A stretch of DNA of 60,026 nucleotides from Catajapyx aquilonaris (GCA_000934665.2 JYFJ02002296.1:1-60026), one strand, 5' to 3'; counted from the stretch's first letter, positions 8,795-38,106 are shown. The notes: generated by a model not told the origin, from the sequence alone. A program made the numbers and translations.

Positions 8795-11646
8795 ATGGCC
8801 CAGAGGAGATGCTGCGTCTCCGGATGTTCCAACAGCGGCAATGAGAGAGCATCAGCCGCAATAAGCATCACTGGAGAAGAAGAGTTCAATTACTTTCCTT
8901 TCCCAACAGCCGATTACGACCAGTTAGTCAAGTGGATGTGGGCCGTGGTTAATCCGGGTTGCTCCCTGGTGTGCTCCAGGCACTTCAGGGATTCAGACTA
9001 CGTGGCCATCAACAAGGGCACGTCGTCAGGTTGCCCGACGCTCAATGCCGATGCCGTTCCGATGCTCAACCTGCCTCAAGGTAACTCCAAAAAAAAAGGT
9101 TTTTATGATCATAATGCGGATAATTATTACGGAATGAAAAAACCTTGGGTTGTCCAAGGTGAACAACGTCTTGCGATTGAAGGTCAATATGAAAGTAATA
9201 AGCTTGAGCCATTCCAATAGTAACAATTATATGACATGTGTTTATTTTAAATTATTGTGTTATTCAATAATTATTGTTTACATACTAATTTCATGCAATA
9301 TGCCTGTAATGAATTTTTTTAAAAATAATCATAAAGATGTCCAGCCAAAAAACATGTTTTATTTGTACATTTTATAAAGCCAACATTTCGTGATCTGGAA
9401 TTATGTGGCTTTCATTGTTTTCTTCCAGAAGATGCCCTGTTGTCTTCCGTACAGACAGCTTTTCCTGAATCAGCTTTTCCTGAATTTGCAATTCCGCAGC
9501 ATAACGATGGGCCACAAAAAATTTCAGAAGAGGTACATCAGGACAAGCCGTTGCTGTCAGCACTGGATGAAAATAATGACCAAGTTTTAGATGAAGCGAC
9601 AGATAAGTATGTGGCATTGAACGACAATAAGTTAATGCGGTACTACCAAAAATACAGCTTGCCTCGATAAATGGTCGACGTTCAATAACAATTTGCTCTG
9701 TTGTATGTTAATATGGTTGTTGCGACTAAAAAGCAAATCGCTGTCCATTTCTAGACGCTTAAAAAAACCTACATATTTTTTTTTTGTATGTCTCATATAT
9801 TGTTACCCTTCGCAGGTATGCAGGTGACCATACTTACCAATTCGCCAATGAAGCTCCAGCACTTCCGCTGCACTCACAGGACGAGAGTGAGTCTTCTCGA
9901 CAAGAACCAGAAGAGCGGCATGTTGTTGTCTACGTTAAAAATCCTGATAGGATGACCAGGGAGGACGATTTCAATCGCAAAGTATGCGCAGGAAGTCATA
10001 TGTAAAGCGATTGTAACGAATTGCTAATTAAATTTCGATTGCAGGAAGACCGATTGGGGCGCATGGAAGTTAAAGAGGAGCTTGGAGATGGACAATCCAG
10101 GTCTGGTAGAAAGAAGTACAGATGCAGAGTTTGCGATAACTTTTTCGTAACAAGACAGGAAGTGGCCAGTCACCTGCGGATGCACCTTAAAAGACGTCAT
10201 ACACATCGAGCCAGAGGCGACGTTCTGTTAAAAGAATGTGAAGATGAGCTTGTTTTAGAGAAACACAAAAGAGTGCGCACTAAGAAGATAAAGAGGAACG
10301 ACGAAATGTATGAATGCGAGATGTGTGGGGAGTTGTTCAAGCAGAGATGGTCCTTGGTGATGCATTGCAAGATGCACAATAGACAGACGAATGTGTGCGG
10401 AACGTGTGGGAGAGTATTTGCGTACAATTCCGAGTTAACCAAACATCAGCGCGATCACCTCACCGACACATCAAACGTGCAAAAAGTCGACTTGATGTCG
10501 TTGTTGAACCTCAGTTGCGTGAACCTCGAAAGCGATGAACATACTGTGGCTTCAGGTGTGAGTAGCTCTCCTCACGTGACACAAGTGACTGAGGCATCAG
10601 TGTTGAGTTCAGATGAGATGACACATCTGAAGGACTTGGCTGTCGTATCTTCCGACTTCAAGACGGAGCAACTTGCATGCGATGAACTGTCCAGCGTAAC
10701 ATTGCTGGACAGTAGCATTACTCTTACTGAGCGTAAATCATTTGAGAAGCCGCAAGTTCCCAGTGGCTCAAAGTCATGCGTCCTTAAGATGTTCAGTAGC
10801 AGGCCAGCACAGCGGAAAGCATCAAGCGCCGCTCAAACTTGGGGCAAAGAGCTTTTCAAGTGCGACGTTTGTAACAAGAAGTTTTTTCAGAGTGCGTACT
10901 TGGAGAAGCATTTAAAGCAACACACACTGCCGTTTGGATGTAACGTCTGTGGGAAAGAGTTTGCGTTGGAGACGGAATATATTGCGCATCAAAAGTTGAG
11001 TCAGTTTAAGCAATGTAAACAGGAGGAGCCTATCTTGTGTGGTGTATGCGGAAAGACTTTTAAACATAAGGCGTGGTTAACGACTCATATGACGTCGCAC
11101 TCTGGAGAGAAACCGCATATGTGCGAGACATGCGGAAAGCAGTTTGTGTGGAATGCTTCTTACGCTAAGCATAAGAAAATATGCTCCAAATCTGGACAGC
11201 CATCGCATGCGATTGAGAAATTGTGTAAATGCGATATATGCGGAAAGGCATTTAGGGACAATTGGTCGCTAGAAGTGCATTTTAGGACTCACACCGGTGA
11301 GAAACCATACGTATGTGACACATGCGGGAAAGCGTTATCTCATAAACGCTCTTTGATCAAGCACCAGCGGATTCATGCTGGAGAGAAACCGTACGTATGC
11401 GAGACATGCGGAAAGCATTTCCACATGCTGGCGTCACTCAATTCTCACCGCACGATTCACACTAGGGAATGGAAGTACAAGTGCAACATTTGCGACAAGG
11501 TATTCCGCACTAGCGGGACACTAATGAAACATCACCGGACACACATCGGATTAGAGAAGCCATACTTTTGCAGCATATGTGACAGGAAATTCAAGAACAG
11601 ATCGTCGCTGATAACGCATCATAATAAGATGCATACTGGAATCTGA
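8795..11646 (+). CDS. THAP-C2H2 zinc-finger protein A (about 12 fingers)
   Basis: Exons 8795-9080, 9429-9606, 9816-9981 and 10045-11646 are phase-consistent. THAP pattern CCVSGC..FPFP..W..VCSRHF..AVPMLNL, DHTY motif, TGEKP-linked fingers; AATAAA at about 11702. Confidence 0.9.
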
Positions 11647-12575: not shown

Positions 12576-14830
12576 ATGTCTGCGCTGGACAACTGCTGCG
12601 TTCCGTCATGCCCTGGCCACATAGACGGTGAATCGCAGTTTTCATTTCCGTTCCCGAAGGATCCGCGTACCAGGCTGATGTGGATGTGGGCCATACTGAA
12701 CGCGGACGAATGCAGGGTTTGCGCTGACCATTTTGTAGGAGACGACTTCGTCACGGTCATAAAGAGCGTGGAAGGACACCATTTGCAATCGCTGGAGCTC
12801 AAAGAAGAGGCTTGCCCAACTCAGAATTTGCCGAATCCAGGTACAAACATTATCGGGACAAAAAAAAAATTGATGTAAAAACTGACATATTGTAATTACA
12901 GTGAATGTGGATGCACTTGTGAAGAGTTTGGATGAGATGGTGGCCGCTCTGAAAAAGAAACGGGTTAATCGAGTGAGCCAGAAGGTACAGGGACGCAACC
13001 TGATGCTGAGGCAACTGAAGCCCAAGGATGATATGGTGAAATTACAGCCCAAGCCGGTTCCGATACTGCCAGCACCTGGCCCAGGAGTCAAGCCGCCGCC
13101 TCCGCAGATGAAATTACTGCTTGTAAACCCTGCATCGAAGTCGGAACCTGATGCTCAGCCGACAGTCCCAACGTCTCCGAAGTCTGGCGACACAACGCCA
13201 GTCAGAATTCTTCTCCTGAATTCTGGGCCAGTCAAACCAAGCACTTCTCTGGATGATGTGACGGCCAGGAAACTAGAGGAATTTGGCATCAAACAGGAAC
13301 AAGTTGAGGATGGGTTAGTACAGTCGCATTTGTTGTAATCATGTGCGACATTAACAGAAAAATACTATTTCAGGAGCTCTGTGACTTTACCGAGCACCTC
13401 TTCAGCCCTGGACATCAAAGTCGGCGAACTGGAAAAGTGCGAGGCTGTCACTTGCACTGTCTGCCATAAGACGATTGCTCGTAAACGCGATCTTGCACGG
13501 CACATGCGAGTGCACCAAAGGCCTCTGCAGTGCGAGAAGTGTGGGAAGGAGCGAGGCAGGCGGCATTCCTGTCCGCAGGCTGAAAAGAAGTACATTTGTG
13601 ATTTGTGTGGGGTTCACTTCACCCAGAGGTACCGACTCACTCTTCATGTGATGGAGGAGCATGGGATTAAAGCAAACAAGTCATTCCAATGCGAGAAATG
13701 CGGGCACATGTTCGTTACCGATGCAAGTTTGGCGCACCATGTGAAGTTACACGCTGGCTCCGATCCCCTTGTGTGCGATACATGCGGAAGCATCTTTTTC
13801 ACCACATGTAGTCTCAACCAGCACATTAAAGTGCATACGGGAGATAAGCCATTTTCTTGTGACGAATGTGGCCGCCAATTCTTGCGATACGCCAACTTGA
13901 CTCAACATCTCGGTAAACATGCCGCTTGCAAGTCGTTCACTTGCGAAACATGCTCAAAGACGTTCTCAAGGCAACACACGCTGACCAATCATATGCGGCT
14001 ACATACCGGCGAGAAGCCACATGTTTGCGGACTATGTGGAAAGTCATACAGTCTTCGAGAGAGCCTGATAGTTCACCAAAGACATCACACTGGAGAGCGA
14101 CCATATGAATGCCACATATGCAATAACAGATATTTTGTGAAGTCAGCTCTCCGCATACATATTCAGCGTCACTTGGGAGTGAAGCAGCATATGTGCGAGG
14201 CATGCGGGAAGACGTTTGGCAGCAAATCGGCGATGAACCGTCATAGTCTTACGCACACGGGTGAAAGGCCGTACAGCTGCGATGTATGCGAACGTTCCTT
14301 TTCCTTAAAGTCATCTCTGGACAGCCACCGCATGATTCATACAGGTGAGTATTGTAATGATGGTTTTATATTGCATCAATATCTCATTTGTGTCTTTATT
14401 TGCAGGTGAGAGGCCATACAAGTGTGAGATTTGCGAGAAGGCGTTTCCGTATCGTACGTCCTTAATCTTCCATCGTCGAACCCACACTGGGGAAAGACCG
14501 TTCATATGCGACGTATGCTCCAAGTCCTTTGTGCACAAGCAGGCGTTGGAGAATCACATAAGGATTCACACGGGAGAGAAGCCCTTCATGTGCGAGGCGT
14601 GTGGGAAGGCGTTCAGGAGCAAGCAGAAGTTCACCATGCACAAGAGGTTACATGCGGCTGGAAAGAAGGCTGCAGAGAGTTCAAAGGAGCTTCCAAAGGA
14701 TGCTGTACAGGTGCATCTGAAGATACTTCATCCGAACACGCACGAGAAGACCATTTTCGTGTGCGGAGTCTGCGGGGATGAATTTGATGATAAAGAGACT
14801 CTCACCGTGCATGTCAGCAATTCGCATTGA
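12576..14830 (+). CDS. THAP-C2H2 zinc-finger protein B (about 14 fingers)
   Basis: Exons 12576-12840, 12902-13313, 13374-14344 and 14406-14830 are phase-consistent. THAP pattern CCVPSC..FPFPKD..WMWAILN..VCADHF..ACPTQNL. Confidence 0.9.
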
Positions 14831-16454: not shown

Positions 16455-17043
16455 GACTGCGCATGCGCTTTGGTTTGGCTACGATTGGTCCAAATCGTAC
16501 TGTTTTCACGAGCCAGTTACAAAAGTGGCAAGTTGGTTGATTGGTCGTTTCGAGGCGTCTGCTTGGCCACGATTGGCGTTAACCAGCACTGTTTTCACGT
16601 CCCAGTTGCAGCATATCACGCATGCGCCAACTTTGTTCGATTGGTCGTTTTGAAACATAGACGTATTATATATATTATATACGTCTATGTTTTGAAACCC
16701 CTGCTTGGCCACGATTACACGTCCCAGTTGCAACATAGCACGCATGCGCCAACTTGTTCGATTGGTCGTTTTGAAGCCCCTGCTTGGCCCCAATTGGCGT
16801 TAACCAGCACTGTTTTCACGTCCCAGTTGCAGCATATCACGCATGCGCCAACGTGTTCGATTGGTCGTTTTGAAGCCCCTGCTTGGCCACGATTACACGT
16901 CCCAGTTGCAGCATATCACGCATGCGCCAACTTGTTCGATTGGTCGTTTTGAAGCCCCTGCTTGGCCCCAATTGGCGTTAACCAGCACTGTTTTCACGTC
17001 CCAGTTGCAGCATAGCACGCATGCGCCAACTTGTTCGATTGGG
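16455..17043 (+). repeat. Tandem repeat (units of about 80-120 bp) in the putative promoter of gene C
   Basis: Core cgtcccagttgcagcatatcacgcatgcgccaacttgttcgattggtcgttttgaa occurs five times plus a diverged first copy; each carries GCATGCGC and ATTGG. Confidence 0.85.
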
Positions 17044-17227: not shown

Positions 17228-20200
17228 ATGTATTCGGCGGCCTTCGCCACGACCTGCTGCGTGTCCTCCTGCCCCAACCACCTGGGCAGATGCGACCCGC
17301 TGGACCTCCTCCTTCCCTTCCCACCTCTAGAGGAGGAGAGGGAGCGCCGCTTCCTCTGGATGCAGGCCGTGCTCAACCCGGACAAGGCCAGGGTCTGCTC
17401 CAGGCACTTCCAGGAAGGGGACTTCCTCACACAGGTCATCGGGGGACGGAAGGTCAGGAGGCCCGCACTCAGGAAGGACGTGCTGCCTTCCGTCAACCTC
17501 GCACCAATGGGTATAACATACCATCGGAACCACTCGTTCTAATTCTAATAATAATTACAGATGAGACACACGTACAGTACATTATCATCATCATTACAGC
17601 CAGAATATACTCATTTAACAACTATAACCGCATATAACTGGCTGCGTAGCTACTCACGATGCCCATTGCCACGGCCCACCTTGTTGCCATGTACACCCAT
17701 TGGCACGGCAGCCCGTTGGCATGTCGCTATATCGCTCAAAAACATACGGAGACGATTTTGCATTCACACCAAACGCAAAATCGCCTCCCCATCTTTTTGA
17801 GCGTACATCCGTTGGCATGGTAGCACTGTTGCCATGTACAGCTTGTGGGTGTGGTAGCCTGTTGCCATGTACAGCAAGGGGTAAATTACTCTGCAGTTGA
17901 GCGTACAACAGACTTGTAAAGGGGCCGGACTTGGGCTCGAACTTGGTCGGACTTGACGAGTGATTTGCCCCTTGATGTACATCCGTTGGCATGGTAGCCT
18001 GTTGGCGTGGTGGCTCGTTGCCATGTGCAGCCGTTGGCATGGTAGCCTGTTGCCATGTACAGCAAGGGGTAAATCACTCGGCAGTTGAGCGTACAACGGA
18101 CTTGTAAAGAGCCGAACTTGGCGGACTTGAGCATGGACTTGGTCGGACTTGAGCCTGGACGTGGTCGGACTTGGCGCCAACCGTACAGAGGACTTGACGA
18201 GTGATTTACCCCTTGATGTACAGCCGTTGGCATGGCAGCCCGTTGGCATGGTAGCCGGTTGCCATGTACAGTTCGTTGGCATGACAGTCCGTTGCCATGT
18301 ACATCTGTTGTCATGGTAGCCGGTTGCCATGTACAGCCGTTGGCATGGCAGCCCGTTGCCGTGGAAACTTGTTGCCTTGCACATGCATTGGCATGGCAGC
18401 CCCTTTGGCATGTACAGCCTGTTGGCGTGGTAGCTCATTGCCATGTACACCACTGCCATGTAGACACTTCGCAATTATAGGTGGGACAACCGGACAAACT
18501 TTGCCTTTTTGCACGAGGAGATCGTGTGCGCTTTTGTGTTGCGATGATAGAATGAGTGGTGAAACAAATTCGGAGGTTTTCTTTGCGGCGCTGATGTTCC
18601 TGTCCTTGCAGTGCCGCACATCACGGAGGTGATACCGTCGACTTCCCAGCCCATAGGGTCCGTGACTGACGTGGCACCGGCGATTGCGAAGGCTTTGGCG
18701 ACCATGCACCAGGCTTGGATTCCGGCGGAGGCCAAGAGGGAGCTGGAAGTCGGGCCCGAGTGAGTGCGGGATTCAATGCAGGTTGTACCATGCCAGGGGG
18801 CTAATGGATCAATCTTTGCCCACAGCATCACTACCCAAACTCCGGTCAGGGGTCGCGGCAAGAAGGCCCAGGCTGCAGCTCTGAAGAGAGACTTTCGGCC
18901 CAGGAGGATTTTGCCACGCACAGGTAATTGCGCTAAATGCGACGAGATGCATCATCCTCGTTACAATGCAGCCAAAGTGCACTCGCATTATTTTCACTGC
19001 AACAATTCCCTCTATAATACTCACATGGCCAAGAATATTAATGCACCTTTTTTTTTTTGCAGTTATTTGGTCTGCTCTAGCGAAGAGCCTGGAGGAGGCC
19101 GAAGCTGCGAAGACAGCTGCTCTGAATGCACAGAAAGCTTGGTCTCAGGCAAACCAGAAACCAAGGATTGCTCCGAAGAAAGGGAAGGCGGCAGATGATG
19201 CACTGGCGGCCAAATCTGTTAAACTGATGCCAACTAGACCGGCTCAGGTCAGACCAGCTGGGTCAAGTGCGACGAAACCACTTCCAGCGAAGTCGTACGC
19301 AGCCAAACCAGCTGCAGCGAAACAAGCAGCCACGAAACTGGAAGTGACTTCCCGGGAGAAGCCGTCTGGTGCTCACCCATTCAAAATAATTGTCATCAAG
19401 TCTCCAGTGGATCCCAAAGCTGCCCAAGCAGGAGCCAAGCCTGCGTCAACGGAGAAGATAGAATTTGACAAACCAGCCGAGGCCGTGTCCGTCAGCCAGC
19501 CTGGAACTAGCTCATCCCAGACGAAGCTGCTGGTTGTCAATCCAGCCTCGGGGAAGCAGAAGCAACCCGTGTTCTCCATCACGTCGCCATCTGCAAGCTC
19601 TTCTCAGTCCGCTCAAGGTGCAGCTCCACAAGTCAGTTACATCGTGTTTAAACAAGGCACTGTAAATCCTGCGTCGTCGCAAGTGTTTGTCCAAGAGAAG
19701 GCTGGATCTAGCGGTGAAGATGCGGAGGAGCAGAAACGTGACGATCAGTAAGTTACTTAGTATTACGAATGTTGATTATTTGGTACTGAATCACATGTTA
19801 TCGCACTTCCAGAATCTCCAGCGAGAGCAGACCTGAGAGCAAATCGGATTTGACGAAGAATCAGCCTGTCATTTGTCCGATTTGCAAGAAGGTGGTTGCG
19901 AGGAAGCGCAACCTGTACCAGCACATGCGTCTCCATCAGAAGCACCCAAAGTGCCAGCAGTGCGGGAAGGAGCAGGGAAAGGTGCACATCTGTCCGATGG
20001 CAGGGAAAACCTACAAGTGCGGCAAATGCGACGCCCTGTTCATGAAGAAGTATCAGCTTGCATTGCATTTGATGAAAGTTCACGGGATTAAAATCGATGG
20101 GAACAAGGCTGTAACATGTGGGGTGTGCCAAAAGACGTTCATAAACGCCATGTTTCTTAAAAAGCATTTGAACATGCATAAACCGGAAGGGCCGCTTGCC

Positions 20201-20902
20201 TGTGGGATATGCGGAAAGCAGTATCCTACGTACCGAAGTCTGCACCACCACCAGCGAATTCACATTGAGAAGCCTCATGCGTGCAACTTGTGCGAGTACA
20301 GGTCGTATTCGAAGTCAAATCTAGGTGCGCATATGTCAACTCACTACAAGGCTGAGCGGCCTTTTATGTGTGAGGAATGCGGCAAGACGTTCACCAGCAA
20401 GACGTCATTGAAGAAGCACAGCGTCGCGCACACCGAGGAGAGACCGTACCAGTGCAACGTATGCGGAAAGGCCTTCAAGATCAAGTCATCGCTGGACAGC
20501 CACACCATGCTTCACACAGGCGAGAAGCCGTACAAATGCGAGATATGCGACAAGGCGTTTGCGCATCGCACGTCCTTGTCATTCCACCGGCGCACCCACA
20601 CTGGCGAAAAGCCTTTTGCTTGCATGCTGTGCGGGAAGTCGTTTGTTCACCGGCAGGCAATGCAGCGCCACATCAGGATTCACACTGGGGAGAAGCCGTA
20701 CACATGCGAGATATGCGGGTTGGCCTTCCGGTTGAGAGAGACCCTCAACAAACATCTGCAGTCTCACGCTGGCCAAAAAACAAGGCCAAGAATAGTAGTG
20801 GACGTCCCGGAAGTGTATCAGGTGGAAGAGGTACAAGACGAGGAAGTCATTAACCTGGAGCTGAAGAAGCACATGGGGATTAACAGGCCGCATCCAGAGT
20901 GA
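17228..20902 (+). CDS. THAP-C2H2 zinc-finger protein C (about 10 fingers)
   Basis: Exons 17228-17510, 18612-18759, 18826-18923, 19063-19747 and 19813-20902; intron phases 1,2,1,2 are all consistent. Confidence 0.88.
17660..18462. repeat. Intronic degenerate minisatellite (ttgccatgtacagccgttggcatggtagcc) with ggacttg subrepeats
   Basis: Many direct and self-complementary tgcca/tggca units, plus an internal duplication (about 17810-17990 vs 18030-18235). Confidence 0.8.
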
Positions 20903-21735: not shown

Positions 21736-24700
21736 ATGATGTCCGTGGCGATGGCGGTTCCTTCCTCGTGCTGCGTGTCCTCCTGCCCCAACCACCTGGG
21801 CCCCAGATGCGACCCTCTGGACCTCCTCCTTCCCTTCCCACCCCTGGAGGAGGAGAGGGAGCGCCTCTTCCTCTGGATGCAGGCCGTGCTCAACCCGGAC
21901 AAGGCCAGGGTCTGCTCCAGGCACTTCCAGGAAGGGGACTTCCTCACGCAGGTCATCGGGGGGCGGAAGGTCAGGAGGCCAGCCCTCAGGAAGGACGTGC
22001 TGCCCACGCTCAACATGATGGGACAACAACAACCACCATCATCAGGTAATAATAATAATAATAATACACTGCCCCCAACAGTGATGAGTGGGACGAGGTT
22101 AAAGAAAGCTCATTTTTCTCACAAGCGCAGTAGAAAGTAATTTAGAATTCAACTGACATAACATCACATCACATCGCACATAACTAATGTAGCACATAAC
22201 TAACTCATATAATATAGCACATAACTGACATGGGATGTAACTGATACAATGTAGCTGATAATATAACACATGTCACATAACTGACATGGGATGTAACTGA
22301 TACAATGTAGCTAAAAATATAACACATATCACGTAACTGATATAATGTAGCTGATAATATAACACATATCGAATAACTAATACGACATAGCTGATGATAT
22401 AACACATCACATAACTAATATAATATAGCTCTTGATATAGCACAATCATGCCACATTAATATAATATAGTTAATGATATATCACATATCGCATAACTAGT
22501 ATGACATAGCTGATAATATAACACATGTCACGTAACTAATGTAACATAGCCAATAATATAACATATATCGCATAACTAATATACCGTAGCTGATAATATA
22601 ACACATCTCACATAACTAATACAATATAGCTGATAATATAACATATCACATGGCTAATACAATATAGCTAATAATATAAGATGGAGCACATAACTGACAT
22701 GGGATGTAACTAATACATTATAGCTAATAATATAAGATGGAGCACATAACTGACATGGGATGTAACTAATACATTATAGCTAATAATATAAGATGGAGCA
22801 CATAACTGACATGGGATGTAACTAATACATTATAGCTAATAATATAAGATGGAGCACATAACTGACATGGGATGTAACTAATACATTATAGCTAATAATA
22901 TAAGATGGAGCACATAACTGACATGGGATGTAACTAATACATTATAGCTAATAATATAAGATGGAGCACATAACTGACATGGGATGTAACTAATACATTA
23001 TAGCTAATAATATAAGATGGAGCACATAACTGACATGGGATGTAACTAATACATTATAGCTAATAATATAAGATGGAGCACATAACTGACATGGGATGTA
23101 ACTAATACATTATAGCTAATAATATAAGATGGAGCACATAACTGACATGGGATGTAACTAATACATTATAGCTAATAATATAAGATGGAGCACATAACTG
23201 ACATGGGATGTAACTAATACATTATAGCTAATAATATAAGATGGAGCACAGTCATAACTGACATGGGATGTAACTAATACAATATAGCTAATGTAACATA
23301 TTATGTTACATTATTAGCTATATTGTATTAGTTACGTGACATATCTTATATTAATAGCTACATGTTATATAGAACATAGCCAATGCAACATGATATAACT
23401 GATATGACAGTGAATGTAGCTATAGTGCGCAATGTAGCTTTGTAACTGATATAACGTGTAATATAAATAAATATAGAAATGTGGCTAATTTTTGTTTTAA
23501 AATTGTGCAGCGTCGTCAGTTCAGAAGAAGAGCGTGTGGCCCGCCAAAAAGAGTCGCGTGAGGAAGTCGGGATGGAACAAGGCCAGGACGGGACGGGGTT
23601 CTGCGGCTGGTGGGGCGTCGGTGGTGGCTGCGAAGGAGTCGCCCGTTGCGCGGAGGGTTCTGCTGGAGTCTTCGGACGAAGAGGGAGAGGAGTAAGTTGG
23701 GGGTTGGCACGTGTGGAAGGCGCGTAGTGATGGGTTGATCTCGCATGCCGCTTAGTCAAAAGTGATGTTGATTTGTATTTAGAAGTACCGCACGTTTCGA
23801 ATGCAATATTGACCCTGGTTAATTCTCCGCAGGTGTACAAGGAAACGAAAGGACTGCCTGGAAACATTGTCTGAAGACATGCAACCCAAGAAAACTGCGC
23901 GGCTCACAGGTAAATTCTGAAACTGAACTGAGACTTGCAGCATCTTCTCTGATGATTGAAGAGATTACGAAATTTGAAAAGGCTTCTAACTGAAAAGTTG
24001 CCAATGTTGAAATAATTTCTTTGTGACATTTAATACTGGAACAATCTAGAATGGAAGTGTGCAAAGGTTGATTTTGCCATGGTCAATATAATTAAATGTC
24101 GAGGTTGCTTCTAACGGTATAGGGTGGAATTTCCTTCCCACTGCTAGTCACTGCTAACTAGTAGTGACCGCATCCCCCAACAATTATAGGTACTGCTAAG
24201 TTAGTAGTTTAACTACAAGTGGGACAAATATTCCACGCAAATTTTATTATTATTCCGTAGTTGTTATTTAAATGATTGAAATCTGGCTCCACCTACTAAT
24301 GTGGGTCATGGTAAAATTATTGGTCCTTGTAGTTACTTTAGCTGTTTTTGTAATGAATCGAGCCATGAGTGCCGTACATTGTTGTAAAGGGTAATTCTTG
24401 GAACTTTTTTTACAGCGAGACAGGCGGCTCTTGCAAAAAAACAGGCGACTTCCGACGCTGCCCAGAAGTCAACAAAACAGAACCAGATGTCGAAGGAGTC
24501 GCAAGAGGGAAAGACGACACCAACAGAGAGCGAAGATGAATTTTGTGACCTTACGGGGGAAACTTCTGATGAAACTACCCAAAGGAAACCGACTTCGGAC
24601 GAAGACGCTCCAGGCAGTCCAACTCCGACTGAACCTCTCGATGATGAATCCGTATTAGAATCGCCCCCTCCATCTGTAGAGAATTTGTCTGAATCGGCTT

Positions 24701-26277
24701 CAACAGCTGTGAGGCCCCCGATGTCTACGCTACATATGAAATTAATCATCAAGCCTCCCGACAACCAGGAAAATGCAAGTGTCCCAAACGCAGAAATGCA
24801 GCCTGAATCTTCAACAACCGCACCCGCAAAAGCCGTACAGATATTGCCAGTGCATAAGCAAGGTGTTGGCTCATCAGAAATGAAGCTCCTCATCGTAAAT
24901 CCAGCCTCAATGAAGACGACATCTGGCCAACCGATGTTTCCCATCCCGTTGCCAGCATCGGGCAAATCCAGTGAGGGTCTACCGTCGCCTGAAATCAGAC
25001 TGATCCTTCTGAAGCCAGGTGCAAATGCCGCAACACAGGGCCAACAGGTGTCCAATGATGAGCTTTCGGCCCAGGAAAGCAATGAGAAGGAAGAAAGTGG
25101 GTGAGTTAGATTGTGTTTTGAAGGCCATTTGCATTATATTTATCCGGTTTTGTTTTCAGAAAAGCAAGCGGAAATTTGCCTGAAGCTTCTGCAAAAGTGG
25201 CTGCCAAACCGTACAAGTACAAGCCCGTCCAGTGCACCATTTGCAACAAGACCGTCGCCCGGCAGTGCAACTTGCCGCGACACATTCGGCTGCACCACTT
25301 ACGAGGGCCCAAGCCCGTAAAATGTAGACGATGCGGAGGGGAACGTGGGGATAACCACAACTGCCCGGTAGTGAAGAAGAAGCATGTTTGTGACCAGTGC
25401 GGAGGCGAGTTTACTCAAAGGAACTATCTACGCCTGCATGTGTGGGCCGCACATTCAGACAGAGCCAGGAAGACTCAGCGGACATTCCATTGCAGTTGGT
25501 GCAGCGAATCCTTTCTGCTGAAGCCTTTGCTGACCGATCACATCATGAAAGCGCATGAAGTCGAGTCAGAATCGGTGCGGATGCCATGCGTTTGTGAGAT
25601 TTGCGGAAAGAGGTGTGTACCGCACTCGTGACCTAATGTGAACATGTTAATAATCCGTCGGTTTTATTTTCAACAGGTTTCAAAAGCAGAGAAGCTTGCG
25701 GATCCACTTGCAACGACACACTGGCGAGAGAACATGCGTGTGCCATGTTTGCGGACGTGGTTTCTTCTCCAAGTCCGACCTGAATGCTCATCTGTCGCTC
25801 CACACGTGGGAGAGACCCCACATGTGTGAGACATGCGGAAAGACTTTTAGATCCAGAGCAGGTCTCAGCCACCATAAAAGAAGGCACAGTGAAGCGAAGC
25901 CGTTTCAGTGCGCCGTATGCAGTCGCAGCTTCAAGCTCAAGTCTTATCTGGATAACCACCATAAGATACACACTGGAATGAGGCCTTACAAGTGCGAGAT
26001 ATGCAGCAAGACGTTTGTGCATTGTACGTCCATGAGATACCATCAGCTGACCCACGCAGCTGAGAGGCCATTTCCGTGCATGATCTGCGGGAAATCATTT
26101 GTCCACAAGCAGGGGTTGCGCATGCACGTCAAGATTCACACCGGAGAAAACCTGTTCGAATGTGAAATTTGCAGCAAAGCGTTTAGAAAGAAAGACTCGT
26201 ACGTGAAGCACGTCAAAGCACATACGGACGGACTCTCGTTGGAAAATCAAGCGGAAAAACTATCGCAGAATAATTGA
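21736..26277 (+). CDS. THAP-C2H2 zinc-finger protein D (about 10 fingers)
   Basis: Exons 21736-22045, 23511-23691, 23833-23909, 24416-25100, 25160-25612 and 25677-26277; phases 1,2,1,2,2 are consistent and the first four match gene C. Confidence 0.88.
22150..23360. repeat. Intronic 56-bp satellite
   Basis: Unit cataactgacatgggatgtaactaatacattatagctaataatataagatggagca; about 10 identical copies at about 22675-23250, degenerate related units upstream, inverted fragment after about 23295. Confidence 0.95.
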
Positions 26278-26730: not shown

Positions 26731-27481
26731 CAACGTGGGCAGTAAGAGTCCTGATGTGATGGACAAGAATGTGGATCATGCGGATGGAACGTACACTTGC
26801 GACATTTGCAGTGCGCAGTTGCCCAGCCGTCGCAGTGTGAAGCTGCACATATTTCGGGCGCATGTCGAAAAAGTATTGCGGTGCGACCAATGCGACAAGT
26901 TGTTCTCGAAGCAAAGGGCGCTGAAGCGGCACAGAGAACTGAAGCATGGCGAGGTGAATTCGTTGGCGTGCGAGACATGCGGGAAGGTTTTCTTGAACAG
27001 CAGCCGCCTGCAGGTGCATCGGAGACGTCACGCCAAGGAGAAGTCGTTGATGTGCCATGTGTGCGGGAAAAAGTTTTCATTCCCAGGAGAGTTGGAAGTT
27101 CATTTGCATGTTCACACCGGAGAGAAACGGTTCATGTGCGACATCTGCGGGAAGACATTTGGGAGCCAGTCCGCACTGAGCCATCACCTGCAGACGCACA
27201 GTACGACAGTGAAGCAACATCAGTGTGCCATATGCGACAAGACATTTGCGCTCAAGTCCATGCTCAACGACCACCTTGTGCTGCACACTGGGAAAAAGCC
27301 ATATCAATGCAAAGTGTGCCTGAAGGCTTTCCCATGGCGCTCATCTTTGGCCAAGCATATGACCACCCACTCTGACGACAAGCCGTTTCCATGCGACATA
27401 TGCGACATGACATTTGCCTGGAAGCTAAGCAGAGACAGACACCTGACGGTGCACAGCAGGGAGAAGCCCATGTCGGAGTGA
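26731..27481 (+). CDS. Orphan C2H2 exon (8 fingers), probable alternative terminal exon of gene D
   Basis: Acceptor ttgttttcag at 26721-26730 with phase-2 entry, open frame with 8 fingers, AATAAA at about 27510, and no THAP exon of its own. Confidence 0.8.
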
Positions 27482-28460: not shown

Positions 28461-28796
28461 CAGGGAGCATACATACTACATAAAGAGGCGCAAACATTCG
28501 ATTTTTGCGTCTCTCTGTTTGGGGACTGGCGGCCATCTTGAAGTGTGTGGAACGCCAACGAGGTATAAATAGGGTACAGGCAAAAATAGGGTCCGCCATC
28601 TTTGATTCGCGCGTGTTCTTGCCATGTAGTTGCCATGGCCGTCACAATCATCAAAGATGGCGGACCCTATTTTTGCCTGTACCCTATTTATACCTCGTTG
28701 GCGTTCCACACACTTCAAAATGGCCGCCAGCCTTGGCAACGGCCCCAAACAGAGAGACGCGAACATCAAAGGCGCCGACAGAAGTTCGCGCCCCTG
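28461..28796. mobile_element. Foldback MITE with CAGGG termini, copy 2
   Basis: Near-identical internal arms to 2973-3309; 7-bp flanks acctaat/acctagc. Confidence 0.85.
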
Positions 28797-29299
28797 ACCT
28801 AGCTCCTCCCGTTGAACTTTAACTGCTCCTCTTGCATGCATAGAATCCAGGTTAATTGGGGTGGCAGGAGGCAGATCGTCATTTCACAGAACGAACTGCA
28901 TCAAATTGGGTGTCATGCTTCACTTCATCCTCACACGTTGCTATGGAACGTGCTACACGGAAGCCCTCTTGGATCAAACTTGTGGGAATTAGTCATACTT
29001 GGGGCTCACAAAGTGGTTGTGTCATTGCAAGGTGTCCTAGGACAGTCACACCAAGGGGGTAACCTCTCCCCAAAAAAGTGTACAGCATGCCGGTTACCCT
29101 GTACAGACCTGTTCCACGAAATGGTTACCCCCTCGGACAGCACTTTTGCAGGTTGACTACTGGAGTAAACAAGGAATGGGCATGGGTGATTGAGGAATGC
29201 CGGCCCACATGTAGAAGACTACATGAACTCCTGATGGATTTCTCCACTAGGTGACATGATTCGAAGCAACCAAGAGCCACCCTGCCGATGGTTCTCTTC

Positions 29300-29500
29300 G
29301 GAGCAGAAATCTGGGGCAGGAGAGCAAAGATTAAGAGTATCAGGCACCTGTTGCCGTTGCCAATGTCAGGTCGCAGGACAGCCTGGTGCAGGGGGCGCAG
29401 CGGGTCCTGGCAGCGTCTGAAGGGAGGATATCGCTCTGTTGGGCAAAGGCTCATTCTGGAATATATGGGAACGAGGCAGCTGATGAGGAGGCAAATGTGA
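29300..29500 (+). mobile_element. Decayed non-LTR retrotransposon RNase H fragment
   Basis: ISLCWAKAHSGIYGNEAADEEA matches the RNase H C-terminal motif WVxxHxGxxGNExAD; boundaries approximate. Confidence 0.7.
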
Positions 29501-29780
29501 CAACGGCATGGGCAACCTTTAACGAGTTCTGCCTGCGAGTGCTATGCATGCAAAAGGAGCAGTTACAGTGCAATAATTTCAGGCCCACCGTGGCCTCAGA
29601 TGAACTCAGCATGAAAATGCCATATTTATATTCTGCAACTGAGATGACAATTATTTTATTTTTGACCCTCACTATAGTCCCTTATGGACAGGTGGTGCTG
29701 TAATTGTTCGGTAATGTGAAGGTGTGTTGCTGATGCCGATTTATTTACTGCTGCACCATTAGGAGCTTGAGTGTTGAAGG

Positions 29781-32093
29781 ATGCCGTCACTACCCCCCAG
29801 CCTCTGCTGCGTGTCATGCTGCCCCAATAATCGTGGCAAAGGGGCCTCACCAGCTGGTCGGACTCATTGCTATCCTTTTCCAAAGGATGAAACGATGAGG
29901 GCATTGTGGTTGACTGCCATTTTCAATCCTGATGTGTTTGGGGTGTGCTCGGAACACTTTCAAGGAGGGGATTTTATTTATTTCCAACCTCAAAGTGGCA
30001 GTGAAGAAGATGAAGAACAAAGGATGGAGCCATCTCCTGTCATGCTTAAGAAGTATGCTTGTCCATCCAGAAATCTAACTCGCACAGGTTGGTAATATTA
30101 TTGTGGCCTTTAGTAGAAGTAGTAGTTGTCTCCAGGATGATTATAATGCAATCATTTCGTAAGGTATCATGATCAATTCTTTGTTTGTAGGTTGCGTTAG
30201 TGCGTGAAAGAGAGTAAATCTGAAGTACCTTATTATGTTATGAAGCAAGTTGTTTACAGACTTGTGGCTACACCAAGCAATTAATATCTGCATTAATTTC
30301 CAGCTGAAGAGGTGACAACAAAAGGCAGTATGACGACAGAAGTGCAGAAGGAACCAGTCCTGGACCACAATAACGAGGGATTACCTAAAAGAAAGAGGGT
30401 GTCATTTACTGACGTTTTGCAGAAGTTAGCAAATGAAGCAATGGAAGTCAAAGCCGGAGATAAGATTCCTAGTGATCATTCCGTCAGAGTGGAGCCCTTG
30501 AAGAAGGCTCCCATGGTGGTCATACATGACACAGAGTTTCTCCGATGTCACAGTTTTTCACGTGTACCCCTTTCGAATGAAGTGGAACCAATTTTGCCAC
30601 GGAGTCAGTATTCATCAGAACCCATGGATTTGTGTGGACCAATTCCGATTGAAGATCAATCATGCTCCCGTCGTGCTGTTAGGTGTCAAGGGATTCTTAG
30701 TGGACAGGAAGCAGCAAGTGCTCGTCAAACTTCATGTGAACCATCCCCTGATGCTGGAAGACCACTTTCAACTGTTAATGAGTCTGAAATGACTTCACTG
30801 TTGGCAGGCACTTTCAACCCGTCTTGTTCAGATGAACCAGATGAAAACAAAGCAGATCCGCAACTTACAGACAGATGCAACCATACCAAGATCTCCAAGC
30901 AAATTGGTTGCAGTTTGGAAGAAAGGATTATTGCACTTGTGGCCCTGGACCATTCTTATGCGTGAGTGTCAAGGTGATCGTTACAAAACCAGCCAAGTTC
31001 TGCTGAATTGCTTTTCTTATAATTATCTGTAATATTGGCCCTTCCCCTCACGTTAACATGCCGCTAGGTAAAATCATTCGTAGAGTTTTCTCCAGGTTGT
31101 AAGTTTATTGAAATAAAATTAAATCATGGAATCGGAACATGAAATACTCTGTATGAAAAATGACCTGACTCGTAAGCACTTCTTTCTTTAAGCCATTTTT
31201 CCTATTCCTTGGATGAATTAAAGTTGGACTGATGAATCGAGTCCTTACAATAAAGAATTAGCTAGAAAAACCCTACAATCGGGGTAAGGAAAATAAAATA
31301 AATAAATAAGAATTAGCTAGAAAATATTATTCCCACTCTGATCATTTCTTCAGCTGGACCATATGTCAAAATTGATAAAAGGTAACAAGCAATAATTTTA
31401 CATGTAGTGCATAATGATAAGGTCTAGAATTATGGTGACATCTTTTAATGTGGCTGAGTTGCTCCACTGATGCTAGATTGTCTACCATGGATTGAATGCT
31501 CAACTTTCGATGGGCCGCCAGATCTCACGGGTCTTTACGACCTAGGTTGTAATAGAAGAAGGAATTACGCAATATGCAGCAAATTCAAATTTCGTGTGAA
31601 AGATGTTAATGGATTCATTCCTTTCTTGCAGAATTTGCAGAAAACCTCATGACCATGACATTCAGAAACCACCAACAACTAAAGAAAACTGTTTGAAGAC
31701 CGGTACTGCTTCGCCTGCCAAAAGGAGATCAGATTGTTTGAAGACCAGTACTCCTTCACCTGCCAAAAGGAGATCAGATTGTTTGAAGACCGGTACTGCT
31801 TCGCGTGGCAAAAGGAGAGCAGATTGTTTGAAGAGGAAGCAGCCACATATAGCAAAGTCAACGAAAAGGGGTGGCACCTTTGGTTTATGTGAAAACTGTG
31901 ATAAGCAACTTGAGGGTGAACCTCATGGCTCAGTTAACGGAGATGTTCACATGGAAGAAGGAGAGGAGCAGTTTCCGAGTGACTTGGGCCCAGCGGAACA
32001 TGATGTTCCATCAAGGCGTGCTGAACGTAAGGTGCTGCTCCGCAGGAAGTCACTCTTCCAATGTGTATTATGTGGTAGGAAGGACCTACGCAG
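29781..32093 (+). CDS. THAP protein E, lacking an intact C2H2 array (3' end unresolved)
   Basis: Exons 29781-30087, 30304-30961 and 31632 (or 31641)-32093 are phase-consistent. THAP pattern CCVSCC..YPFPKD..WLTAIFNP..VCSEHF..ACPSRNL; DHSY motif; ends in the half finger FQCVLCGRK. A possible last exon lies at 33043-33091. Confidence 0.7.
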
Positions 32094-33739
32094 GTACGCA
32101 ATGCCACTTTTTTTTGTGGTGTATAGGAAGTTGAAATACCTGGTCATGATGTAATGAACGATGATTACCACAGCACGGTTATTGCAGAAGGGAGTTTCTC
32201 ATGGGGTGTGGGAGGTAGCCATCAGTCTTGATAAATTATTACGCAGGGTGTGGAAATTTATCCTGCCTTTGCTTTTGAGGATGATAGAAGGACTCTAAGG
32301 CATTAACCATTTATGGTTAGGCCTCTTTTTTGTGTTCTCTCTTTTTGGTGTGGGTGCATCAAAATAGCACCTGCTCTACTTCCAGATTTATTGAAAGCTA
32401 TTAAGGCCAGGTGCAAACAGGCTACTTGGATCGAGGCTACTTGAAGCCGATATTCAAGCATCAAGTGTTTCCAGGTAGACGGCAGGCATGGTGTGGCCAT
32501 ATGAATCCAGGTTTCTTTCCGTCTAGCAGAAAAATTGGATACTTTGAAATCGGCTTTAAGTTGCCTCGATCCAAGTTGCATGATTACTAGGGGGCGACCG
32601 CGTGCTTGCTACAATATCACATGACAATAACTGTGCTTGTGACCAAGGTAGTGGCATTTTAAAATGTTGTACTCTTTTGTTCAACCCAGTACACTCTTTA
32701 CAGGTAATGCAAATATCATTGATACCAACTGGCAGACCTTATGGAGGTGGATATTGCTGATGGAAGTCCAACTTGAAGAACTTTTTTTTAAAGCACAGGA
32801 TAAAGTACTTCACCTGACGTGATCCGATGTGAATTATTTACAGTAGTCAACATCATGATCTTGGTGTGCATTCAGCTGTCACAAATGCATTGGAGAACAT
32901 AATATCAGTGGTTATCCAGTTAACTGACTGGGACCTTGCAACCTGAATCATTCTTAATTTATTTATTTTTTATAGTAGCACATGCTATATTAAGTCTTGT
33001 GAATCACCAGGCTCAGGGGTGCTCTTACTCTGCATTTTGCAGCTTGAAAAGCGCCGTGGCGATCACATTGAAGAGAAGCATCTATGTTTAACATCGTCAG
33101 TTTTCATCAAGTCCTTTTGTTAACTTGGGCCTTGGAATGGGAGAAAAGCATTAAATTGTGAGCAAAGTGTGTTTTGTGCGAAAAATAGGTCATCAAGTTA
33201 GCAGCCGAACAAAAATGGAAGCAGTGCATTATGCACAACATGTGATGTACCCAGTGGAATTTCAGAAACAGGTGATGCAGAGGCGAACTTGTGCAGAGGA
33301 GTGTCAAATGTATAGAAAATATTAATGAGGGGAACTAAAATATTTGGTCAAATGTTGGATATGAAGTTTATGGCCACACAAGCATGGAAATGGTGCATTT
33401 AGTATTAATATGTGAGGTGCAATTCCATAGACATCTGAATCAGTGAAGTTGTACAAAACACAGACTACACGTGACTGTCAAACATGTGGAAAATATTTAT
33501 TTAATAAAGCAACTGCAATAATAAATTGCGCTGTCTTTTTCCAGATCCTGAGAGGATATCAAGATTTAGTGTCTAGGGGGAACCCCCCCCCCCCCCACCA
33601 TTGATTATGTTATTAATTTTATTATATACCTCATTGAAAGAATTTTGGTCCAAGTTCTGAAGATAATTCCAATTCCTTTTTAGGGTTATATTACATAATT
33701 TTATGTTTATAACTTGATTGATTGGTAATGTTATGTTAA

Positions 33740-34161: not shown

Positions 34162-35313
34162 GGATGTAATATACAGTATATAATATTTTATGTCATGCAT
34201 TAGAAGGCAGAATCTAAGATATATAGGGGGGGGGGGGGGGGGNTCAGTGTACTTAACGTTCGTGTTTCGCGGCCGTGACCGAAGTTAGAAGCTCCACTTT
34301 ATAGGCATGCACCAAAATAATTGCAATTTTGTCGATCAGTGCTAACATATTATAGCCTACCGGTTCTTTGCTAACCATAAAATGCTGATTACTCAAAAAC
34401 CTGTAGTTGATGGAAGAAATTGGTGGACATATTTGAAATCAGCGCAAAAAAATAAAATATAGGAATCGCACATTCATATGTTACATATTGGCCAGAAAGA
34501 AAAAAAATCAAATTATTTCGTTCCCTATAGTGTTATTATTAACAACTATAATAGGCGACTATCATTATATTAACTGCTATGCTTTCTAACTGCTACTATA
34601 AGTTCTAGTTACTTTGAATTACTTTTAATCCCAAGTTTAATCCTGACATGCGTATTAAGATAATTATCATAAGCGTAATCATAATAATTATGGTAACCCT
34701 TATTATCTCCTATCACTGGCCATAACGGATTGGTCAAGAACAAGGTCAAGAATCGGTTCGGTATTGCTTGGGACGCATGCGCACGTCGCAGATTGGGGGG
34801 GAGGGGGGGGGGTTAATTTGCCCATGTAATCTCTGTATTGTTATTATTTAATATTTTATAATTCAACTTGAAAGTAATACAATTAGAGAGCGGAAGTGGT
34901 TGGGGGTCATTTGCAATTTATGTGCGTTTTAAGTGGGATTTGTGATGGTGTGCTTGATCGTGTGAATAAGAACGCTCGTTCTCTTCCCAACGATCAGAAG
35001 GATCAGGACTCGTTCTAAAATTTGGGATTCCCCCTTCGATTTAAAAATTATTATTATCTCGTTTTATGCCCACTTTTTAAGGACTATATAAACTCGGTGG
35101 AAATGTGCGACCGGACCATGCATCCATCAGTGGTGAGAGCATGCCTTCGGGGCCTTTATTTTTGTGAAAGTAATGTCTGGCTATGCATCCGTACACACTC
35201 ACTCTAATAAGAATAATTGCAAAGCAGTTGTTGCTTCTGGTTGGACTTTGGATATGACATGTAGAGGCGGGACAACTCAAAAAAAGATTTGGCTCACTCT
35301 CCTACCTCTGCAG

Positions 35314-38106
35314 GAATGGACTGTTGAAGCCAACTTGAGCCTCCTGCGCAGGAAGTGCTGCATCTCTGCCTGTCCCAACAACAACAGCCAATCCAGCAGG
35401 AAAGGGACGCACTACTTTCCATTCCCCTCCGACCCGGGAATGCGACTGGTCTGGATGACTGCCATCCTCAATCCGGACGCATTCAGGGTCTGCTCCGACC
35501 ACTTCACCCAGGATGATTACGTCTTTCCCATGGCACTGGACAACTCGCAGGAAGGAAGAAGCCAAGGTGACAAAGAAGGGACGGTTTATCCAGTCGTACT
35601 CAAGAAATCCTCATATCCAACCAAGAGACTTCCGCACACAGGTATAATGATACATCCTAAGTTGATAATGATCACTTACAGCAGCTTTTCTCAACCTTTT
35701 TACCTTTGCGGAACCCTTGAAATAGTATCCATGTCTCAGGAAACCCCTACATAAAAATTAATCAATTAATGACTCAAAAATGCATTAACACATGATTAGT
35801 CTAATGTGCAGAAAATGAGGGAACGATCTGACATCATCGAGGTTTCCATGGAAATACTCTCACAGAACAATACGAGTAGACAGTGTCAACAAAAAGGCAA
35901 AAGCGATGACGTCAGATCGTTCTCTCGTTTTCCGTACATTGTTTCTAGCAAAACCCCAGTTGAGAAATGCTGATTTATGGACTGGGAGTGGATCTCCATG
36001 CATCTTTAGTTGTTTCCTAACAAATACGTGTTCATTAACTTTGAAGTGATGAAGATGGAAGCAAACGAGACAGACGAAATACACCAAAGTGCACAGAATT
36101 CAGTTGTGAAGCTGGCAGAGTCAGGAGAAAATACTTGCGAATTGTTGGTGAGAAGGGAAGATATTGAGCCGACCCCTCTTCCATCTGAAGTGCAAACGGC
36201 ATCGTCGTTTGGATCTCTCGACAGCTCATCCACCAACGAGGAGGAACGTAGCACCAATATAATCATAGTTGATGCCGGACCGCAGCCCAGGCTAGGAAGT
36301 AATGAACTGGAACTGATAAAAACTGAAGCTGACGAGGCTGTTGCTGAAGATAATGACTGCAGCCAGACCTCAAATATGGTGGCCATGGACCATGACTATG
36401 GGTGAGCGAATGGCAGATCTGGGTTAAAAGCTCATTGATTTGATTGATTCTCATTTTTGTTCTCAGTTCTCAGTCTGGTGCGCGTGAGTTGAAGAAGACG
36501 AAGTTGAAGAAGGTTAGGCCAAAGTCGTGGAAGTGCGATACATGCGGAATGACTTTTGCGAACAGGACGCTTTACATAGAAAGACACATGGCAACACACC
36601 AGCCGTGTGAGGTGTGTTTTAAAGAGCGAGGTGACGATCACAAGTGTGAAGCCGTCAAGATGAATATTTGTGACAAGTGCGGCACAGAAGAGGGGGAAGA
36701 TCACAAGTGTGCCGTGGTCGAGTGTAAGACGTGTGAGGTGGAATTCGCAGATGAGTACCAGTTGGCTGTGCATAGGGCGCAATTGCATGCTCAGAAGAGG
36801 GAATTTAAATGCAAAGATTGCGGAAAGTCCTATCGCACGATGGGAGGATACGTAACTCATCGGCAATCACATGATGAGGTGTCCATATCTTACGACTGTG
36901 GAAAATGTGGCAAAAGTTTCCTAACCTCTCAAAGGCTCAAGGTCCACTGTCAGACACACGTTGAAGAAAAACCACATCAGTGCAAGCACTGTGTAAAGTC
37001 ATTTAGCACCAAGCACTCCCTGTATCGGCATGAAATGAGTCACCGCAGGGAGAGGCCTTTTGCATGTCCAGCCTGTAATAAAACCTTCAGAGACACAACA
37101 CAGCTCACTGTACACATGCGTGTGCATACTGGGGAGAAGCCGTATCCATGCAGCCAGTGCGGAGCTTCATTTCGTCAGAAGCCGCACCTAGCCACACACT
37201 GTAAGTTGAAGCACTCTGACGCCACAGTCAAACGTGGCCTCCAGATGAAGCAGAAGTGCATGTGCGAGATCTGCGGGAAGGTACGATGAATTAATTAATG
37301 CTTCGTTTGTACCCCTTCCATCTCCATTGTGATTTCCTGACACCAATTCCATTGCAAAAATATTTAGAGCTCTGATTGTATTGCGCTTGTTTACTAACAC
37401 ATGGTTTCACTTGAAGGTTGTCAGTGGAGCATCGGTGCTGAAGAACCACATGAAACGTCACACGGGAGAAAAGCCTTTTGAGTGCAACATTTGTAAGAAG
37501 CCCTTTGCATTAAGAAGCCAGGTGGTCTCCCATATGCATATCCACAACGATAATAAACCACACCAATGCGAGACCTGCGGGAAGGTTTTCGCACACATCA
37601 GCTACTTGTACATCCACAGGAGGACACACAAAATGGTAACTTGTGTGTTTTACATTACAATAATTATCAGAGCAATGCTGTTTGATAATCAGAATATAAT
37701 CCCGTCTTTAATGAGGATGTTGACATGTGCAGAACAATAATTTTACATCTTTTAACAGGTCCTGCCATATGAATGTACAATTTGCCGGAAGACCTTTGTA
37801 ACTCGTATGCAGTTTGAGGACCACACGCGTCTTCACACTGGAGAAAAGCCGTTCCAGTGCGACCTCTGTGGAGAGAGTTTCAGCAGCAAGATGAAGAGGA
37901 GGCGTCACAAGCTAAAGCACGAGTTGCGTCACCACTGTGACGTATGTGGGAAAGCTTTTGGGTACAGGTCAGAAATGATGGTTCATAAGAGAACCCACTC
38001 TTCAGAGAGGCCGTTCAAGTGTGCTCTGTGTGGCGGGAAAGGGTTCATCAGTGTGGGGGAACTCAATCGGCACAAGAAGAAAGTACATGGACTTGAATCA
38101 CTGTAA
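35314..38106 (+). CDS. THAP-C2H2 zinc-finger protein F (about 14 fingers; start codon uncertain)
   Basis: Exons 35314 (or in-frame ATG 35173)-35641, about 36047-36401, 36467-37280, 37417-37635 and 37759-38106 are phase-consistent. THAP pattern CCISAC..FPFPSD..WMTAILNP..VCSDHF; DHDY motif. Confidence 0.85.

Follow-up and report, generated by a model that had tools for sequence, protein, structure and literature searches.

The DNA analysed here (the window) is the whole 60,026-nt stretch JYFJ02002296.1:1-60026 of the Catajapyx aquilonaris assembly GCA_000934665.2, and its subject is a gene cluster on the plus strand between 8795, the ATG of gene A, and 38106, the stop of gene F. Six tandem paralogs (A to F) and one orphan finger exon (D2) lie in these 29.3 kb, all on one strand. 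THAP is a zinc-dependent DNA-binding domain derived from a transposase. All six plus-strand open reading frames (ORFs) at the heads of the genes match Pfam THAP (PF05485; E-value = 6.6e-11 to 1.7e-8, 35.5–43.3 bits), and 6/6 exons score above the curated cut-off of 23.9 bits, so that the six THAP-headed paralogs of a preliminary description are all found at their places. We hold it to be probable that the cluster consists of arthropod genes, duplicated in tandem long ago, that encode a THAP domain and a disordered linker, followed in five of the six by 10–14 C2H2 zinc fingers, and that serve as conserved transcription regulators.

THAP heads and gene models

In a six-way alignment of the THAP exons, and likewise across 28 sequences, neither the zinc ligands C..C..C..H nor the residues P, W, F and P vary (C, C, C and H; the P of FPFP; W; the F of HF; and the P of A.P..NL). 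Zinc ligands in the C2CH arrangement (C-x2-4-C ... C-x2-H), together with the conserved P, W, F and P, are the hallmark of THAP domains. A hidden Markov model (HMM) of the six exons gave exactly six matches (118–134 bits) in a six-frame scan of the 60 kb, and the next ORF scored 7.1 bits; because this HMM was made from the same six exons, the scan shows merely that the window holds no seventh THAP copy or relic. Among solved structures, THAP11 is closest to the six-exon profile (2lau, E-value = 3.6e-8), and THAP2 was matched at 0.0059 (2d8r). An AlphaFold2 model of the gene E THAP exon, made with 28 aligned sequences, reached a pLDDT score (predicted local distance difference test) of 77.6 (an earlier model from six sequences, with 53.8, was not used). 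The top five PDB matches of this model were THAP2, THAP1, C. elegans CtBP-THAP, THAP1-DNA and the P-element THAP; the predicted structure thus agrees with the THAP fold, at weak Foldseek E-values of 0.03–0.1 and with template modelling (TM) scores of 0.46–0.60 (target-normalised). When a tree was built together with 119 THAP domains of the library (98 columns), the six THAPs of the window fell on one side of a branch with a Shimodaira–Hasegawa-like approximate likelihood ratio (SH-aLRT) support of 76; the pair C+D was supported by 100, and the groups of B+(E+F) by 90 and 85. This gives a weak indication that the six THAP exons share common descent.

The gene models were built by hand from the sequence alone, the exon junctions being read by eye and then tabulated, and all exons given here are on the plus strand. 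The THAP exon of gene A (8795..9080, with its ATG at 8795 and a phase-1 donor at 9081; PF05485 E-value = 1e-9) precedes two linker exons (9429-9606 and 9816-9981, DHTY at 9826-9837) and a finger exon with 11 C2H2 (10045..11646, phase-0 entry, stop 11646; Pfam zf-C2H2 E-value = 1.5e-49). Gene B comprises a THAP exon (12576..12840; Pfam E-value = 1.7e-8), a linker exon (12902..13313; KLLLVNPAS at 13111-13137) and two finger exons with 14 fingers (13374-14344 and 14406-14830; CCHC knuckle at 13531-13572), between which a 61-nt intron lies inside a TGE|RP linker. Gene C has a THAP exon at 17228..17510, a linker exon of 685 nt at 19063..19747 (KLLVVNPAS at 19524-19550) and a finger exon with 10 fingers at 19813..20902 (knuckle at 19952-19993). 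The THAP exon of gene D lies at 21736..22045, its linker exon, also of 685 nt, at 24416..25100 (KLLIVNPAS at 24883-24909), and its 10 fingers on two exons (25160-25612 and 25677-26277; knuckle at 25323-25364), where a 64-nt phase-2 intron divides one finger. The linker exons of C and D, identical in length, show only about 50% DNA identity. Gene F consists of a THAP exon (35254..35641; Pfam E-value = 6.6e-11), a linker exon (36047..36401) that ends in phase 2 with ...MDHDYG (DHDY at 36388-36399), and three finger exons with 14 fingers (36467-37280, 37417-37635 and 37759-38106; CCHC knuckles at 36606-36647 and 36669-36710), one finger being divided by an intron.

All 17 introns (17/17) have GT-AG ends, and nine of them measure 59–65 nt. 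After splicing, genes A, B, C, D and F give open frames, free of internal stops and terminated by a stop, of 743, 690, 685, 682 and 707 codons, respectively, and the order of THAP, disordered linker and C2H2 fingers is repeated in these five genes. The THAP exon had been said always to end in a phase-1 intron right after a PxxNL-type box. This holds in six of six: a phase-1 GT donor lies just past the A.P..NL box, in gene D 9 codons further downstream, and is matched by an acceptor of the same phase on the coding exon that follows. Phase 2 marks the end of the linker exon in B to F, and the finger exon is entered through phase-2 introns of 59–65 nt in B, C, D and F, as previously claimed, and in phase 0 in A. 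The finger exon of gene B has no ATG ahead of its first finger and therefore requires upstream exons. For gene C, an automatic exon-chain search returned 3 other phase-compatible chains omitting the conserved linker exon; the model with the linker exon was preferred because this linker is homologous to those of B and D.

A different explanation of the same exons is that each THAP exon is a small gene of its own, or a relic, lying among separate zinc-finger (ZNF) genes, and that the apparent fusion is an artefact of model building. Each THAP ORF does continue for 3–45 codons past the donor to a stop, so that a THAP-only product would be possible, and the nearest Atlas clusters are THAP-only proteins of about 100–130 amino acids (aa). 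However, the phase-1 donors stand at the same place in 6/6 exons and are matched by phase-1 acceptors downstream, the introns are of minimal size with consensus ends, no start codon stands ahead of finger 1 in the finger exons of B, C, D and F, and THAP, linker and fingers follow one another in this order five times over. We regard separate genes as very unlikely.

Linkers, finger arrays and gene E

No Pfam domain was found in any of the linkers, but short motifs recur in them. Between the THAP domain and the C-terminal region, [D/E]-H-x-Y is present in A, E and F and absent in B, C and D; it takes the form DHTY (A), DHSY (E) and DHDY (F), and stands in the last exon before the point of array entry, gene E itself being without an array. 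In E and F, the motif lies at the very end of a homologous exon. Composition-preserving shuffling gave a chance of 0.009–0.033 per linker and P = 6e-6 for at least 3/6 linkers, a calculation in which E and F do not count as independent cases. KLL[LIV]VNPAS and a second hydrophobic stretch of the [IL]xLL type are common to B, C and D. Asp/Glu-His-x-Tyr is described as the HCF-1-binding motif (HBM) of most human THAP proteins (text of PMC13631171). In A, E and F, as in most THAP proteins of humans, the partner of DHxY would be the Kelch domain of HCF-1, and the KLLxVNPAS and [IL]xLL motifs of B, C and D would have another partner; as a guess, these might form a SUMO-interaction-like strand. The earlier designation of the THAP as an effector exon is not supported by these observations, since THAP is itself DNA-binding and the candidate cofactor motifs (DHxY; KLLxVNPAS) lie in the linkers.

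The fingers number 11 in A, 14 in B, 10 in C, 10 in D, 14 in F and 8 in D2, and in all of these they are of the classical poly-C2H2 kind (PF00096; C-x2-C-x12-H-x3-5-H with TGEKP-like linkers). So, of the arrays of 10–14 C2H2 that had been ascribed to all six genes, those of A, B, C, D and F stand, and that of E does not exist. A signature is common to B, C, D and F: finger 1 is followed, ahead of finger 2, by a knuckle, CxxC[GF]xExGxxHxC, which is present twice in F. Because these four genes share finger 1 and the knuckle, we counted the signature toward common descent. The C-terminal fingers of B, C and D match position by position, and their contact sets are partly kept (PTSF/ATSF/VTSY and VQAN/VQAR/VQGM, that is, xTSF and VQAx). 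The knuckle matches no Pfam family and could represent an additional zinc site. For its CxxCGxE portion, the dimerising 'CGEx' finger of Diptera (bioRxiv 10.1101/2025.09.04.674178) was considered and rejected, because CGEx is located on a strand that precedes a single finger and has been reported as Diptera-specific.

Gene E consists of a THAP exon (29781..30087; Pfam E-value = 6e-10), a linker exon (30304..30961) ending in phase 2 with ...LDHSYA (DHSY at 30948-30959), and a last recognisable exon (31632..32154), in which a coding repeat precedes half a finger, CVLCGRK. The repeat, 45 nt × 3.2 at 31690-31834, is in frame and CLKTGTASPAKRRSD-like. The gene ends either at a donor at 32094 or by read-through to a stop at 32152-32154, which gives 495 aa. 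It has 0 fingers, and nothing finger-like was found downstream as far as 35130; an exon completing the half finger (CVLCGRK...), sought up to gene F, had no credible candidate. Gene E would have lost its array, or never had one, and would behave like a classical finger-less THAP protein.

The finger exon D2 (26731..27481) is an addition to the earlier inventory. It encodes 8 C2H2 (Pfam), has a phase-2 acceptor, and lacks a THAP exon of its own; it might start from a mini first exon (ATG 26608, phase-2 donor 26637) or from an internal ATG. An AATAAA signal lies 29 nt past its stop, whereas gene D has neither AATAAA nor ATTAAA within 600 nt of its stop; the same is true of gene F. D2 would be a gene without a THAP or else an alternative 3' cassette.

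Age of the duplications and exchange between C and D

Identity of the THAP exon among the paralogs is 31–46%, with the exception of C and D, at 87%. In DNA, the C and D THAP exons (17228-17510 and 21736-22045) are 88% identical, but outside the THAP these two genes are merely 38% identical, and the closest pair is B-C, at 46%. By the Nei-Gojobori method, the C/D THAP exon has a synonymous divergence (dS) of 0.27 and a nonsynonymous divergence (dN) of 0.083, whereas the proportion of synonymous differences (pS) is saturated, at 0.74–0.84, in B/C, B/D, E/F and the remainder of C/D. The 300 nt flanking the C and D THAP exons on each side are unlike. The low dS of the exon, the saturated remainder and the unlike flanks argue for gene conversion or exon replacement limited to the exon, and indicate that one recent exchange of this kind made the THAP heads of these two genes alike. 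Since the exchange, this head has been under purifying selection (dN/dS about 0.3).

Saturation of synonymous sites in all pairs tested means that the duplications are old, and the earlier proposal of an expanding family is not supported; the C/D THAP exon is the only exception. The open frames of 682–743 codons, preserved despite saturation, point to long-term purifying selection and argue that the genes are functional. They imply, too, that a single THAP-ZNF ancestor gave rise to the genes through tandem duplication; intron positions and phases are shared among them.

The fingers had also been suspected of diversifying at their DNA contacts. Among B, C and D, however, identity at positions -1, 2, 3 and 6 is 40/112, as compared with 119/308 at the other variable positions (pair by pair, 15/40, 11/36 and 14/36 against 44/110, 41/99 and 34/99), a comparison that is weak at this depth and made without orthologues. 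Between subfamilies, the contacts are somewhat less conserved (for D-F, 2/28 against 25/77). There is thus no evidence of an arms race in the finger contacts, by a test that is weak at this depth.

The exchange between C and D, together with D2 and gene E, also bears on the idea of a modular locus, in which THAP-linker heads are spliced to alternative finger cassettes (D to D2, and E to the fingers of F). The lola and mod(mdg4) genes of Drosophila provide a precedent for such cassettes. The phases are uniform, the linker exons of B to F ending, and the finger exons of B, C, D, F and D2 beginning, in phase 2; the phase-2 acceptor of D2 comes directly after gene D, which lacks the poly(A) signal that D2 possesses; gene E has phase-2 donors but no array; and the exon-limited exchange shows that modules move independently. 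Common descent alone nevertheless explains the uniform phases, and D2 could start by itself, from its plausible mini first exon or an internal ATG. The poly(A) argument is weak because gene F lacks a signal over the same distance. We consider alternative cassettes quite unlikely. Were the modules exchangeable, their phases would be (0,1) for a THAP exon, (1,2) for a linker exon and (2,end) for a finger cassette.

Relatives, neighbours and meaning of the cluster

A search with the six-THAP profile found 2185 proteins (E-value ≤ 1e-3) among 1.84 billion representatives. Multi-THAP proteins head the list, about 64 bits being the highest score for a single domain. Among the best 150 of the 2185 matches, none is more than 40% identical to any THAP of the window, and 10 have at least 3 C2H2 motifs; 6 of these were scanned and 5 were confirmed by Pfam as THAP + C2H2 proteins. 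Such proteins of the library, among them P0201, P0125, P0134, P0157 and P0179, resemble the genes of the window in carrying both domains in one chain, but differ in mostly having 2–5 THAP domains, and one has a PR domain; the signature of finger 1 and knuckle was found in none of these library THAP + C2H2 proteins. The nearest Atlas clusters to the F THAP are THAP families commonest in Arthropoda. A library search with the D THAP exon for longer proteins yielded 57 candidates, none of which scored. With the C finger exon, 7995/8000 scored, dominated by long vertebrate poly-ZNF proteins and uninformative for orthology; only one of the 120 listed matches, P0061 from a loach, has a THAP.

One library match, P0229, combines THAP with TNP-like domains and speaks for a reading of the genes as decayed copies of a P-element-like transposon with a THAP DNA-binding head. 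That origin is already contradicted and is exceedingly improbable: no transposase or TNP-like domain was found in any exon or linker (no Pfam match to the catalytic or GTP-binding domains that follow the THAP in the P-element and THAP9), the frames are open and share an intron structure, and no terminal repeats frame the units.

The clusters of KRAB-ZNF genes (tetrapods), ZAD-ZNF genes (insects) and FiNZ-ZNF genes (cyprinid fish) have the same layout as that found here, namely tandem same-strand paralogs with an N-terminal domain exon, a variable linker, and poly-C2H2 mostly on one exon. The likeness to KRAB- and ZAD-ZNF clusters that had been pointed out (domain exon, diverged linkers and array) is therefore upheld, as regards layout only. 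In contrast to these three families, the head in the window is THAP, which is itself DNA-binding; neither KRAB (PF01352) nor ZAD (PF07776) gave a match in the THAP, linker or finger exons at E-value ≤ 0.01 or ≤ 1. Further differences are that the duplicates are old, that the contacts of B, C and D show no excess divergence, and that there is no evidence of transposon targeting; the recent duplication with faster change at the contacts that marks KRAB- and ZAD-ZNF genes was not found, by a test that is weak at this depth and made without orthologues.

In Drosophila, CG6689 and CG10431 are single genes with THAP, ZAD and C2H2, the THAP being on 5' exons (text of PMC9810180), and their THAP is presented there as a gene-specific acquisition within ZAD-ZNF families. 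Like the genes of the window, these arthropod genes fuse an N-terminal THAP to a C2H2 array, but the genes of the window are without ZAD, and THAP is the head common to all six paralogs. Together with the library proteins, CG6689 and CG10431 provide the precedent for the THAP + C2H2 architecture. Lineage-specific THAP expansions are described for Hydra, Capitella, Crassostrea and echinoderms (texts of PMC10027918 and PMC13228809), with THAP alone or combined with transposase, BTB or other domains, and no clustered THAP + poly-C2H2 is described in these texts; the term 'C2H2' is absent from that of PMC10027918, supplements being outside the scope. Likewise, THAP goes unmentioned in the main text of Wells et al. 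2023 (PMC10547256), a survey of ZNF genes in metazoans. A literature search with supplements outside its scope found single THAP-C2H2 genes only and no clustered THAP-poly-C2H2 family, which agrees with the statement of the preliminary description that no such expansion was known.

Human THAP1-7, 9 and 11 also have an N-terminal THAP and then a linker with Asp/Glu-His-x-Tyr, like A, E and F. They have, however, a coiled coil where the genes of the window have a finger array, and differ from B, C and D, which lack the HBM. In vertebrates, THAP11 and ZNF143 are a THAP and a C2H2 protein paired in trans. The THAP12-ZNF574 complex is another case of a vertebrate THAP working with a C2H2 partner in trans (text of PMC13631171), whereas the C2H2 array of the window genes is in cis, on one polypeptide.

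We think it unlikely that the genes form a lineage-specific and actively expanding THAP-ZNF family engaged in an arms race and in transposon repression, as an analogue of KRAB-ZNFs or some ZAD-ZNFs. Same-strand paralogs with a domain exon and a finger array are clustered, as such a family would require; the identities of no more than 40% among the best 150 of the 2185 THAP matches are compatible with lineage restriction; contact identity falls below background between subfamilies (D-F); debris of transposable elements and tandem repeats lie inside the cluster; and modules have been gained or lost, E being finger-less and D2 THAP-less. However, all the duplications seen are old, with saturated synonymous sites; in B, C and D the contacts are no less conserved than the remaining positions, several contact sets being retained; the copies in view number only six; Pfam detected no repressor domain in the exons or linkers; and the HBM points to promoter regulation of the HCF-1 type. 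The proposed role in transposon control is not supported, as nothing in the analysed sequences bears on it. A joint interpretation, quite improbable in our view, would be an undescribed arthropod THAP-ZNF subfamily, large and lineage-restricted, made of phase-matched exchangeable modules from which exon-level conversion and alternative splicing generate new DNA-binding combinations, and whose transposase-derived head and fingers jointly target mobile elements.

Outside the cluster, the window contains a globin exon on the minus strand (2122-2448; PF00042, E-value = 1.3e-14), a TPD52-family gene on the plus strand (48993-49370) whose best named matches are all arthropod, and a tRNA gene on the minus strand (57744-57815), which alone was found in an Rfam scan. 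The TPD52 exon matches Hemiptera, termites, Diptera, mayflies, a centipede, spiders and Artemia first, with fish at the bottom of the list, and is at most 79% identical to its matches, over part of the query. Together with the Atlas clusters, these matches place the host among the arthropods, with no close annotated relative in the protein collection. An unclassified repeat is common to the start of the window (2762-3277) and the spacer between D2 and E (28484-28822), and an RNase H-like fragment lies just upstream of gene E (29335-29703 on the plus strand; Pfam E-value = 2e-4, below the cut-off). The first intron of gene C (17983-18449) contains tandem repeats with units of 16, 32 and 113 nt, and that of gene D (22294-23292) repeats of 56 nt × 11.3 (98% identity) and 40 nt × 9.7.

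The word GCATGCGC is present 12 times in the window against 1.27 expected. Seven of the 12 copies belong to a repeat array upstream of gene C (16459..17026 on the plus strand), in a 79/178-nt tandem repeat 200–770 nt ahead of the gene. Some 115 nt upstream of the ATG of gene D, at 21612-21621, the palindrome GCGCATGCGC is present again; the sites noted for the two words are 16459-17026, 21612-21621 and 34775-34782. The only k-mers common to the upstream regions are AT-rich words and GCATGCGC. GCATGCGC/GCGCATGCGC may be a common promoter element, presumably of NRF1/Ewg-like character.

In short, the genes are most likely conserved THAP-family transcription factors with added finger arrays. Their proteins would be sequence-specific regulators that read DNA through two modules, THAP and fingers, with cofactors recruited by the short linker motifs. 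Several points weigh against this reading. DNA binding by the THAP or the fingers is predicted, as is the splicing of THAP to finger exons, for which genomic sequence is the basis; the 3 alternative chains of gene C mean that the models are not unique; and the start of gene F is uncertain, the nearest in-frame ATG being at 35254 and an acceptor-like site at about 35312. The monophyly of the six THAPs has weak support (76, with 98 columns), and any partner of the B/C/D motif is a guess. Even in human THAPs, the HBM is not always predictive of HCF-1 binding (text of PMC13631171).

As seen in the window, the family is small and old and bears no arms-race signature. How modules evolve in a tandem family is cleanly exemplified by the exon-limited conversion of the C/D THAP head between otherwise saturated paralogs. 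It is as a rule the N-terminal module (KRAB, ZAD, SCAN, BTB or FiNZ) that defines a large C2H2 family, and a cluster headed by the transposase-derived THAP would add a type to these. The vertebrate arrangement, in which THAP, the C2H2 partner and HCF-1 are separate and act in trans, could here be built in cis, with THAP and C2H2 on one polypeptide.

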